Assembly: GCF_003790525.1 (NCBI RefSeq)
Contig: NZ_CP033635.1
Source: Escherichia coli
GTDB lineage: Bacteria; Pseudomonadota; Gammaproteobacteria; Enterobacterales; Enterobacteriaceae
Direction: 5' to 3' (one strand)
Length of the DNA: 64,000 nucleotides
A program made the position numbers and the translations under genes. Below the pieces are notes generated by a model, which did no database searches, was not told the origin of the DNA, and saw only the letters and a list, made by a program, of their open reading frames with translations. Shown here in pieces: positions 12,981-16,506 of this stretch (position 1 is the stretch's first letter; each line of letters begins with the position of its first letter).

Positions 12981-13373
12981 TTACCACTTTTTATTCAGCA
13001 GGCGGTCGATGCTATACGCGCCTGGACCGGTAATTGCCAGCAGCAGGAATCCGCCAGAAATCGTCAGGTTTTTCATGAACATCAGCGAGTTGACGCCTTC
13101 AGCAAAGTTGCTGTGAAATAAAAATGCCGTCAGCAGCGTAAAGCCCGCAGTAAACAGGGCTGTGGTACGTGTCAGGAAACCGAACAGGATTGCCAGACCA
13201 CCACCAAACTCAAGCAGAATCACCAGCGGCAGCATAAAGCCGGGGACGCCCATTGCTTCCATATATTGTTGGGTACCCGCGTAGCCAGTAATTTTTCCCC
13301 AGCCTGCGGTAATAAACAGAATCGGCATTAAAATACGCGCTACCAGTACACCAACATCTTCTAATTTTTTCAT
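12981..13373 (-). CDS. yqjF: DoxX-family inner membrane protein
   Basis: ORF 12981..13463; start at MKKLEDVGVLVARILMPILFITAGWGK (130 aa) by K-12 recall. Confidence 0.8.
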   Translation of the reverse strand: MKKLEDVGVLVARILMPILFITAGWGKITGYAGTQQYMEAMGVPGFMLPLVILLEFGGGLAILFGFLTRTTALFTAGFTLLTAFLFHSNFAEGVNSLMFMKNLTISGGFLLLAITGPGAYSIDRLLNKKW

Positions 13374-13558
13374 CATACTCTCCACTGCGCCGCTCAGGCT
13401 GCTGATTGTTTTTTTGTGCAAGGGCGCGCTATTAGCGTCGTTGCTGTCGATGGAGAGAATCATAAACGTGGCGAAGCGTGATTGTTAGCAAGGAAAATTG
13501 TCAAAAATCTTCAAAAAATTTGAGGGATAAGGCCGGAATGGCTCCGGCCAGAGGGAAG

Positions 13559-13858
13559 TTAACCGCGAAGCTGTTGCTGCTTGAGGGTCGTTTTAACCAG
13601 ACGCCAGGCGCTCCATACGCCAAAACCGCGTCTGGCCCAGCGGACCAGCATATTAGGATGGCGAATCGTCCAGATCGCCATCACGCTACTGCCAACCAGC
13701 GCCCAGGAGCGCAGACTTAGCAGCATATTCCAGCGACGATCGTAAGCGCCTGTTGCCTCCAGCCATTCACGACGACTGGCAGAAAGATCCAGCCGTTGTT
13801 GCTGGATCTGGCTAAGCAGTTGCGCCTTACGTCGTTCACGTTCGACTTTACTGCTCAC
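13559..13858 (-). CDS. yqjK: small conserved protein YqjK
   Basis: Product (M)SSKVERERRKAQLLSQIQQQRLDLSASRREW... Likely GTG start at 13856-13858, overlapping the 3' end of yqjE. Confidence 0.65.
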   Translation of the reverse strand: MSSKVERERRKAQLLSQIQQQRLDLSASRREWLEATGAYDRRWNMLLSLRSWALVGSSVMAIWTIRHPNMLVRWARRGFGVWSAWRLVKTTLKQQQLRG

Positions 13859-14252
13859 GGGACTCCTCCTCGAGCAGCTGCCGATCGTTTGCCAGCTCAT
13901 GGCGTGTATGGCGCAGCAAGGTGGATTTACGCGATTTACGTAACGTCCAGATACCGCCAATCAGTGCCAGTAGCAGCAACACCACGGTGGTGGCAATCAT
14001 CGCATTCAGGCGATATTGCGGATCAACCGCCCAAATAATTAGCACCATCAGGCTCATAAGACCAAATGCAGCGAAAAGCATCGTCAGGCCCAGCATCAGT
14101 AAAAGTTGAAAGAGATTCGCTTTTTCCTCTTCCAGCTCCACCACCGCCAGCCGCAGACGTGTTTCCACCATTTCAACCATGATGGAAACAATTCGCTGCC
14201 CGATGCCCAGAACGCTTTTACCGGGCCCTTGCGCGTGATGAGTGTCCGCCAT
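13848..14252 (-). CDS. yqjE: DUF1469 inner membrane protein
   Basis: ORF 13848..14321; start at MADTHHAQGPGKSVLGIG... (134 aa) by K-12 recall. Confidence 0.8.
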   Translation of the reverse strand: MADTHHAQGPGKSVLGIGQRIVSIMVEMVETRLRLAVVELEEEKANLFQLLLMLGLTMLFAAFGLMSLMVLIIWAVDPQYRLNAMIATTVVLLLLALIGGIWTLRKSRKSTLLRHTRHELANDRQLLEEESREQ

Positions 14253-14254
14253 AA

Positions 14255-14560
14255 TTAACGACGCGACAGCAGAACGCCGAGCACTACACCGATTGCAGCG
14301 CCAATGCCCACGCCGGTCCACGGATTTTCACGCACATACTCATCGGCACGCGCCGCCGCGACACGGGTTTGTTTGGCGATGGCATCACCGGTTTCACCCA
14401 GGCGATAACGGCTCTGTTTCAGTGCCTGCTCCGCTTTGCTACGAATCTTACTCAACTCTTCTTTCGACTTCTCGCCAGATGAGCTAAGCACCTCTTCCAG
14501 CGTATCGGAAAGGGATTTCAACTCAGCACGCAGATGTTCCGTAGTGTGTTCTTTCGACAT
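14255..14560 (-). CDS. yqjD: ribosome-associated membrane protein (ElaB/YqjD family)
   Basis: 101-aa ORF MSKEHTTEHLRAELKSLSDTLEEVLSSSGEKSKEE... with a C-terminal TM helix. Confidence 0.85.
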   Translation of the reverse strand: MSKEHTTEHLRAELKSLSDTLEEVLSSSGEKSKEELSKIRSKAEQALKQSRYRLGETGDAIAKQTRVAAARADEYVRENPWTGVGIGAAIGVVLGVLLSRR

Positions 14561-16162: not shown

Positions 16163-16506
16163 TCATTATTCCTGGTGAATCGGTTAACGCCACGCTGGTT
16201 TTAAATGATGCACTACCGCAATGTTATTGCTGTTTTGGTATGTTTTGCGGGTTTGATACATCAACACAGCCTGAACTATTCCCTGTTAAATCGTGAGATA
16301 AGAAAGCATTCAAAAGCATAAATTCAAATTGAATCTAATTGTAACAAAGGTCAACGTTGTTCGTTATCAAAATTACATGTCCGTGGAGTCTGATTTTGCT
16401 GAATGCAGGGGAGGGAGGCGAGAGGATTTACACAGGCTGACACTTTATACTTTTCGCTTACCGACGAGACAAACAGGCGCACTGTAGCGCCTGTCGGACA
16501 GGAATT

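Follow-up and report, generated by a model that had tools for sequence, protein, structure and literature searches.

Where translation of the small gene yqjK begins, and whether its initiation is tied to translation of the preceding gene yqjE, are the questions raised by the junction of these two genes in a 64,000-nucleotide stretch of Escherichia coli DNA, referred to here as the window. The original prediction, made from the letters of the window, placed the yqjK start at a GTG inside the end of yqjE and proposed that the two genes are translationally coupled. The features on which the answer depends are as follows.

13559–13858, minus strand: yqjK coding sequence, with a GTG start and a TAA stop (13561–13559), 99 aa, PF13997 YqjK-like.
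13856–13858, minus strand: GTG start codon of yqjK (CAC on the plus strand).
13848–14252, minus strand: yqjE coding sequence, ATG to TAA, 134 aa, PF07332 family.
13848–13858, minus strand: 11-nt yqjE/yqjK overlap GTGAGCAGTAA, in which the yqjK start lies over the last codons of yqjE and its TAA (13850–13848).
13863–13871, minus strand: Shine–Dalgarno (SD) sequence GAGGAGGAG for yqjK, encoded by Glu-Glu-Glu codons of yqjE.
13850–13878, minus strand: RNA hairpin with arms GCUGCUCG and UGAGCAGU, a folding prediction.
13898–13900, minus strand: in-frame ATG upstream of yqjK, at codon −14, rejected as start.
13892–13894, minus strand: codon −12 of the yqjK frame, TGG in the window and TAG in K-12 MG1655.
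13958–13960, minus strand: TTG that opens a mechanical open reading frame of 133 aa, rejected as start.
14255–14560, minus strand: yqjD, the upstream operon partner, encoding a DUF883 ribosome- and membrane-associated protein.

Read mechanically, the yqjK frame meets no upstream stop before a TGA at 13963–13961, and the canonical start codons between that stop and the Pfam YqjK domain are TTG 13960, ATG 13900 and GTG 13858. Reading from the GTG, as had been proposed, gives a product of 99 aa, in agreement with RefSeq and with the K-12 annotation. It had also been claimed that no in-frame ATG stands at the position of the conserved YqjK N-terminus, and this is the case: the only upstream ATG is at 13900, and the next one lies 44 codons 3′ of the GTG (13726, codon 45). 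The longer open reading frame does not open with an ATG at 13960, as was stated; that codon is a TTG, which leaves ATG 13900 as the sole upstream in-frame ATG.

The GTG sits 8 nt before the yqjE TAA, which accounts for the overlap of 11 nt. It is preceded, at a spacing of 6 nt, by the GGAGG core of GAGGAGGAG, for which the best anti-SD duplex with the 3′ end of 16S rRNA has an energy of −11.8 kcal/mol (mean −9.0 kcal/mol over 80 species). The protein matches Pfam PF13997 with E = 4.5e-25 and 88.3 bits (cutoff 28.1), with residues 14–86 aligned to positions 1–73 of the 73-position profile, and its neighbours YqjE and YqjD match PF07332 and DUF883, respectively. The synteny associated with PF13997 is present in E. 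coli, where yqjK directly follows a YqjE-like (PF07332) gene and a DUF883 (YqjD-like) gene. On the other side of yqjK, the start of yqjF (12981–13463, minus strand) is ambiguous, the mechanical open reading frame giving 160 aa from ATG 13463 and RefSeq 130 aa from 13373 (MKKLEDVG...).

The window is 100% identical to strain SC516 and does not come from K-12, the strain to which the original prediction had referred; it differs from MG1655 at 13 positions across yqjE–yqjK, one of which changes an amino acid (A35 in the window, T35 in K-12). RefSeq places yqjK at exactly the window coordinates in SC516, the annotation is identical in the divergent strain RMDEC465, and the protein encoded in the window is identical to WP_000096086.1. 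K-12 carries the same gene as b3100 (NP_417571.1; 3250077–3250376, with yqjE at 3249683–3250087); there, too, the start is GTG and the overlap 11 nt, but K-12 has a TAG at codon −12 that is missing from the window. Because of this TAG, the longer mechanical open reading frame of the window is impossible in K-12. A yqjK that starts at a GTG overlapping yqjE is already the standard annotation, and is an ordinary layout for tightly packed bacterial operons. Further along, upstream of yqjA, a small coding sequence of 84 nt at about 16184–16267 (minus strand) carries the name yqiM (b4787) in K-12, and in SC516 its product is listed as a hypothetical protein.

For the comparative analysis, a scan with a 16-sequence alignment, keeping one genome per species, gave 80 Enterobacteriaceae loci. 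In all 80 species the codon aligned with the yqjK start is a possible start codon (GTG in 51, ATG in 26 and TTG in 3), located 16–18 codons before an invariant IQQQRLDL motif; the start codon toggles between GTG, ATG and TTG across the Enterobacteriaceae at a fixed position. In 65 of the 80 species the frame allows no start further upstream, usually because of a stop 1–3 codons before this codon, and in 49 there is no other candidate. Among the 78 unique sequences the first base of this codon is G, A or T, never C, and the next three bases, TGA, are invariant. Where the two genes overlap by 4 nt, the first base of the start codon mostly doubles as the third position of a four-fold degenerate Ser or Pro codon in yqjE; a C there would leave the YqjE protein unchanged but abolish the yqjK start.

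The phase of codon variability also changes at the junction. In the 4-nt-overlap group (42 sequences), the mean column entropy by yqjK phase is 1.30/0.69/0.44 upstream, with the peak at yqjE third positions, and 0.47/0.29/1.08 beyond +12, with the peak at yqjK third positions; the same switch is seen in the 11-nt and 1-nt overlap groups. The Glu codon that completes GGAGG is the SD-forming GAG in 71 sequences and GAA in 7, and as judged from this comparison the yqjK SD is under selection at the silent third position of the codon.

In the wider YqjK family, called N-termini line up with that of E. coli even in members only about 26% identical to it. Eight loci representing seven distant family members (sharing 26–56% identity with E. 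coli YqjK) all have an ATG start, and no in-frame ATG or GTG was found upstream of it in any of the eight, with L091 having a TTG two codons upstream. The gene order DUF883, YqjE-like, YqjK-like is found in six of the eight, and the short contigs L089 and L091 are consistent with it; yqjE-like and yqjK-like genes have been described as conserved neighbours of DUF883 genes (bioRxiv 10.1101/2024.08.16.608256). The conservation of start position, SD and tight junction in 80 species argues that this start is more than a chance feature. Several independent comparative lines, together with the RefSeq and K-12 annotation, support the GTG start well.

Across species, one part of the junction has been kept and another has not. 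The position of the NTG start is the same in 80 of 80 species, whereas the length of the overlap, whose conservation had been put forward as a check, varies: 4 nt in 49 species, 1 nt in 11, 11 nt in 9 and 8 nt in 7, with a 2-nt gap in the remaining 4. The 11-nt form is that of Escherichia, the Citrobacter amalonaticus/sedlakii group and Intestinirhabdus, and the 4-nt form is that of Salmonella and most other genera; at locus L014 the junction is, by inspection, an ordinary 4-nt overlap. The distant loci have overlaps of 1, 4, 8, 20 or 23 nt, or a 2-nt gap. In sequences whose overlap is 11 nt or 8 nt, the SD and the yqjK start are closer to each other by one base. The TGA of GTGA thereby leaves the yqjE frame, so that yqjE reads on to the next stop; in E. 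coli this is the TAA, 7 nt beyond the out-of-frame TGA. On an argument of parsimony rather than from a tree, the 11-nt overlap of Escherichia therefore looks like a state derived, within a lineage, from the common 4-nt GTGA form through a one-base indel.

We consider it very likely that yqjK is a GTG-started gene, the last cistron of a yqjCDEK mRNA, whose initiation would be promoted by translation of yqjE. The genes yqjCDEK have been treated as an operon, and an interaction between YqjE and YqjK has been predicted (PMC10746276). Published work has demonstrated translational coupling in overlapping co-directional pairs, whose products are often subunits of one complex (PMC6728339, PMC10666635, PMC12548453), and yqjE and yqjK have the layout of such pairs, being co-directional with junctions that range across the family from a 2-nt gap to a 23-nt overlap. 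From the overlap, the family-wide tight junction and the published pairs, we reasonably infer that yqjE and yqjK are translationally coupled.

A ribosome finishing yqjE would cross the yqjK GTG, melt the local structure and terminate within reach of the GTG. Translation of yqjE could then promote initiation at yqjK either through reinitiation by the same ribosome or through unfolding that admits a new 30S subunit recruited by the SD. These routes recall the two non-exclusive models that have been put forward for coupling, RNA unfolding and ribosome reinitiation or scanning, and coupling is most efficient at short distances (PMC12548453). YqjE and YqjK, two small inner-membrane proteins, would in this way be made together, and the purpose would be a matched output of the two; linked synthesis of complex subunits is the usual rationale for such packing (PMC10666635). 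A deletion of yqjE, or a stop introduced into it, is likely to affect YqjK, which is relevant to the design of deletions and tagged constructs.

The junction before yqjE is also close, with the TAA of yqjD and the ATG of yqjE 2 nt apart (14250–14257, minus strand). The 'first ATG' heuristic for the yqjE start worked in 49 of 81 sequences (80 loci plus the window), and in these 49 (48 loci and the window) the yqjD–yqjE spacing is 2, 1 or −1 nt. No SD was found before yqjE in the same 49 sequences, where the mean duplex energy is about 0 kcal/mol, compared with −9.0 kcal/mol for yqjK. A yqjE without an SD and with the yqjD stop only 2 nt away suggests that yqjE depends on yqjD translation, and this dependence may operate via reinitiation after yqjD. 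The tight packing of yqjD, yqjE and yqjK suggests linked synthesis of the three products, which is of relevance to the YqjD ribosome-hibernation module.

The alternative that survives best accepts the GTG start and holds that yqjK is initiated independently by its own strong SD, the overlap reflecting genome compaction with no coupling. We regard this as unlikely, though it has a definite basis in the SD duplex of −11.8 kcal/mol at a good spacing and in an overlap whose exact length differs between species (1, 4, 8 or 11 nt, with a 2-nt gap in some). What speaks against it is that no gap wider than 2 nt separates the genes in any of the 80 species or eight distant loci, and that other overlapping pairs are tightly coupled and lose their coupling with distance (PMC6728339, PMC10666635, PMC12548453). 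A transcription start upstream of yqjK, predicted from RNA-seq and cited in a study of CsrA (PMC10746276), would favour independent initiation, since on a yqjK-only transcript from such a start coupling to yqjE is impossible. A simple sigma-70 scan of 13859–14252 found no internal promoter in yqjE, which is a weak negative for an operon that is RpoS-dependent.

The predicted structure at the junction bears on the same choice. The 110-nt junction context folds at −42.4 kcal/mol (z = −2.75), and the same hairpin is obtained in a 54-nt fold. In this predicted hairpin, bases 2–3 of the yqjK start codon and codons 2–3 are paired, the loop contains the SD, and the last paired base is the first base of the yqjE stop codon; pairing of these start-codon bases and the two codons after them would argue against initiation by the SD independently of yqjE. 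The hairpin is without covariation support, which favours independent initiation: for the 8-bp helix, 74% of cells in 78 sequences pair, compared with 75% in column shuffles, and no excess of compensatory changes in the start-codon helix was found across these 78 sequences. As evidence for selection on RNA structure the hairpin was therefore set aside, the helix pairing no better than shuffles, and it is kept only as a prediction for E. coli. An apparent compensatory pair is seen at the L029/L036 junctions (locus coordinates 1965–2018), where L029 has CUACU:AGUAG and E. coli CUGCU:AGCAG, and it is isolated.

A scan called no terminator after yqjK, again a weak negative. A GC-rich hairpin, GGCCGGAGCCATTCCGGCC (13531–13549, minus strand), lies immediately beyond the yqjK stop, and a T-run follows only after about 12 nt; the hairpin could act at the operon's end as a weak terminator or as a stem that stabilises the mRNA.

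Readings that change the start, or add a second one, fare less well than independent initiation from the GTG. That a minor, strain-polymorphic YqjK proteoform of 113 aa is made from ATG 13900 beside the 99-aa product is very improbable, and a sole start upstream, at ATG 13900 (113 aa, 53-nt overlap) or TTG 13960 (133 aa, 113-nt overlap), is a shade more improbable again. The upstream start draws on a frame that is open in the window back to 13960 and on a minority of public gene calls that use the 113-aa form (P0001, P0014), but there is no SD in the 20 nt before ATG 13900 and the Pfam domain does not reach into the extension. In the yqjK frame just upstream of the GTG, K-12 reads ATG AGT TAG, where the TAG at codon −12 is made by 13895 C>T and 13893 G>A, changes that are silent in yqjE, where the Leu codon CTG becomes TTA. 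The 61-mer with this TAG, the K-12 allele, is found identically in at least 1,180 of 5,426 complete E. coli genomes, the count being a lower bound since it was taken from identity bands of 61-mer matches. In those genomes the upstream ATG and TTG are therefore unusable for yqjK. The upstream start is already refuted for K-12, which holds a natural stop codon closing the longer yqjK open reading frame; roughly three-quarters of E. coli strains may, like the window, be missing that TAG.

Comparison between species points the same way. The frame is closed above the conserved start in 65 of 80 species, and ATG 13900 is absent in most of them. As a protein, the upstream extension is poorly conserved (MSWQTIGSCSRRSP against MNWRMTGNYSRRRV, with a stop in one sequence and no Met in another), whereas the C-terminus of YqjE, encoded in the other frame over the same stretch, is conserved as LANDRQLLEEESRE[QR], and the variability follows the yqjE codon phase. 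An upstream start had been named beforehand as what would overturn the GTG; the K-12 stop, the missing SD and the unconserved extension exclude it as far as sequence can.

Gene calls for yqjK disagree among public records. Most give 99 aa, and a form of 113 aa from ATG 13900 appears in some E. coli and E. fergusonii records (for example P0001, with 8 member sequences, and the E. fergusonii entry P0014). Calls of 123–155 aa, where inspected (P0002, P0006, P0027), are C-terminal read-throughs or have a longer N-terminal extension, and variants of 109–112 aa with an internal duplication occur in Shigella and Salmonella records (P0003, P0022, P0036). The 99-aa, GTG-initiated YqjK of the reference annotation is the right model, and the 113-aa and longer public calls are over-extensions. 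Beyond annotation quality, the significance of the start itself is small.

ATG is the commoner start codon in general, which is one point for a start inside yqjK, either at Met 13726 (codon 45) or at a near-cognate codon, for example the CTG of codon 14, giving a shorter protein and no overlap. Such a start is barely credible. Residues 1–44 are conserved in the yqjK frame in 80 species, with third-position variation from +12 on, the Pfam YqjK domain begins at residue 14, and family members 26–45% identical begin at the equivalent N-terminal position. No SD precedes ATG 13726. A downstream Met, the other outcome named in advance as fatal to the GTG, would at codon 45 delete half of the conserved domain, and is thereby excluded to the extent that a nucleotide record allows.

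Experimental records were consulted for direct evidence of the start. No yqjK/b3100 rows are present in the supplements of TetRP (PMC4909307), INRI-seq (PMC9825163) or the acid-stress Ribo-seq study (PMC10746267). TRAINSPOTTER Table S1 (PMC13245402) contains N-terminal peptides for YqjD and YqjE, and among its rows listed, where b3099 is followed by b3107, there is none for YqjK. The lack of any peptide over YqjK residues 1–44 among those rows is a point in favour of a downstream start; one likely reason for the absence of YqjK from N-terminomics is that trypsin trims its N-terminus to MSSK. For yqjE, the rows listed in the same table give the start with peptide support and without Ribo-RET support.

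A YqjE–YqjK fusion made by programmed +1 frameshifting at the yqjE stop (CAG UAA A), with SD-like help as in prfB, would make use of the fact that a +1 shift at CAG-UAA-A enters the yqjK frame downstream of the SD-like GAGGAGGAG, but it is next to impossible, given that CAG cannot re-pair in the +1 frame (AGU) and so offers no slippery site, that 12 nt separate the SD from the shift site as against about 3 nt in prfB, that the relative phase of yqjE and yqjK differs among species (4-nt and 1-nt overlaps versus 11-nt and 8-nt overlaps), and that a valid yqjK start codon is conserved in every species.

The preferred reading, a GTG-started yqjK whose initiation would be promoted by yqjE translation, can be set beside known coupled pairs. 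MS2 coat–lysis and rpmI–rplT are coupled by RNA unfolding, according to a review (PMC12548453); yqjE–yqjK differs from this type in that its predicted hairpin is short, has arms that are ordinary Leu-Leu and Ser-Ser codons, and shows no covariation (78 sequences). There is a likeness to the coupled pairs with NTGA (−4) or with TAATG and TGATG (−1) junctions (Huber et al. 2019, 2023; PMC6728339, PMC10666635; PMC12548453), which, like yqjE and yqjK, are co-directional genes of one operon, with the stop within a few bases of the next start and with products predicted to interact. In the review of Brown and Wade (PMC12548453), a spacing of −4 is the commonest, and −1 and −8 are also enriched. The spacing of −11 in E. 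coli yqjE–yqjK lies outside these enriched classes, whereas the −4 GTGA/ATGA/TTGA form is the one found in 49 of 80 Enterobacteriaceae yqjE–yqjK orthologues.
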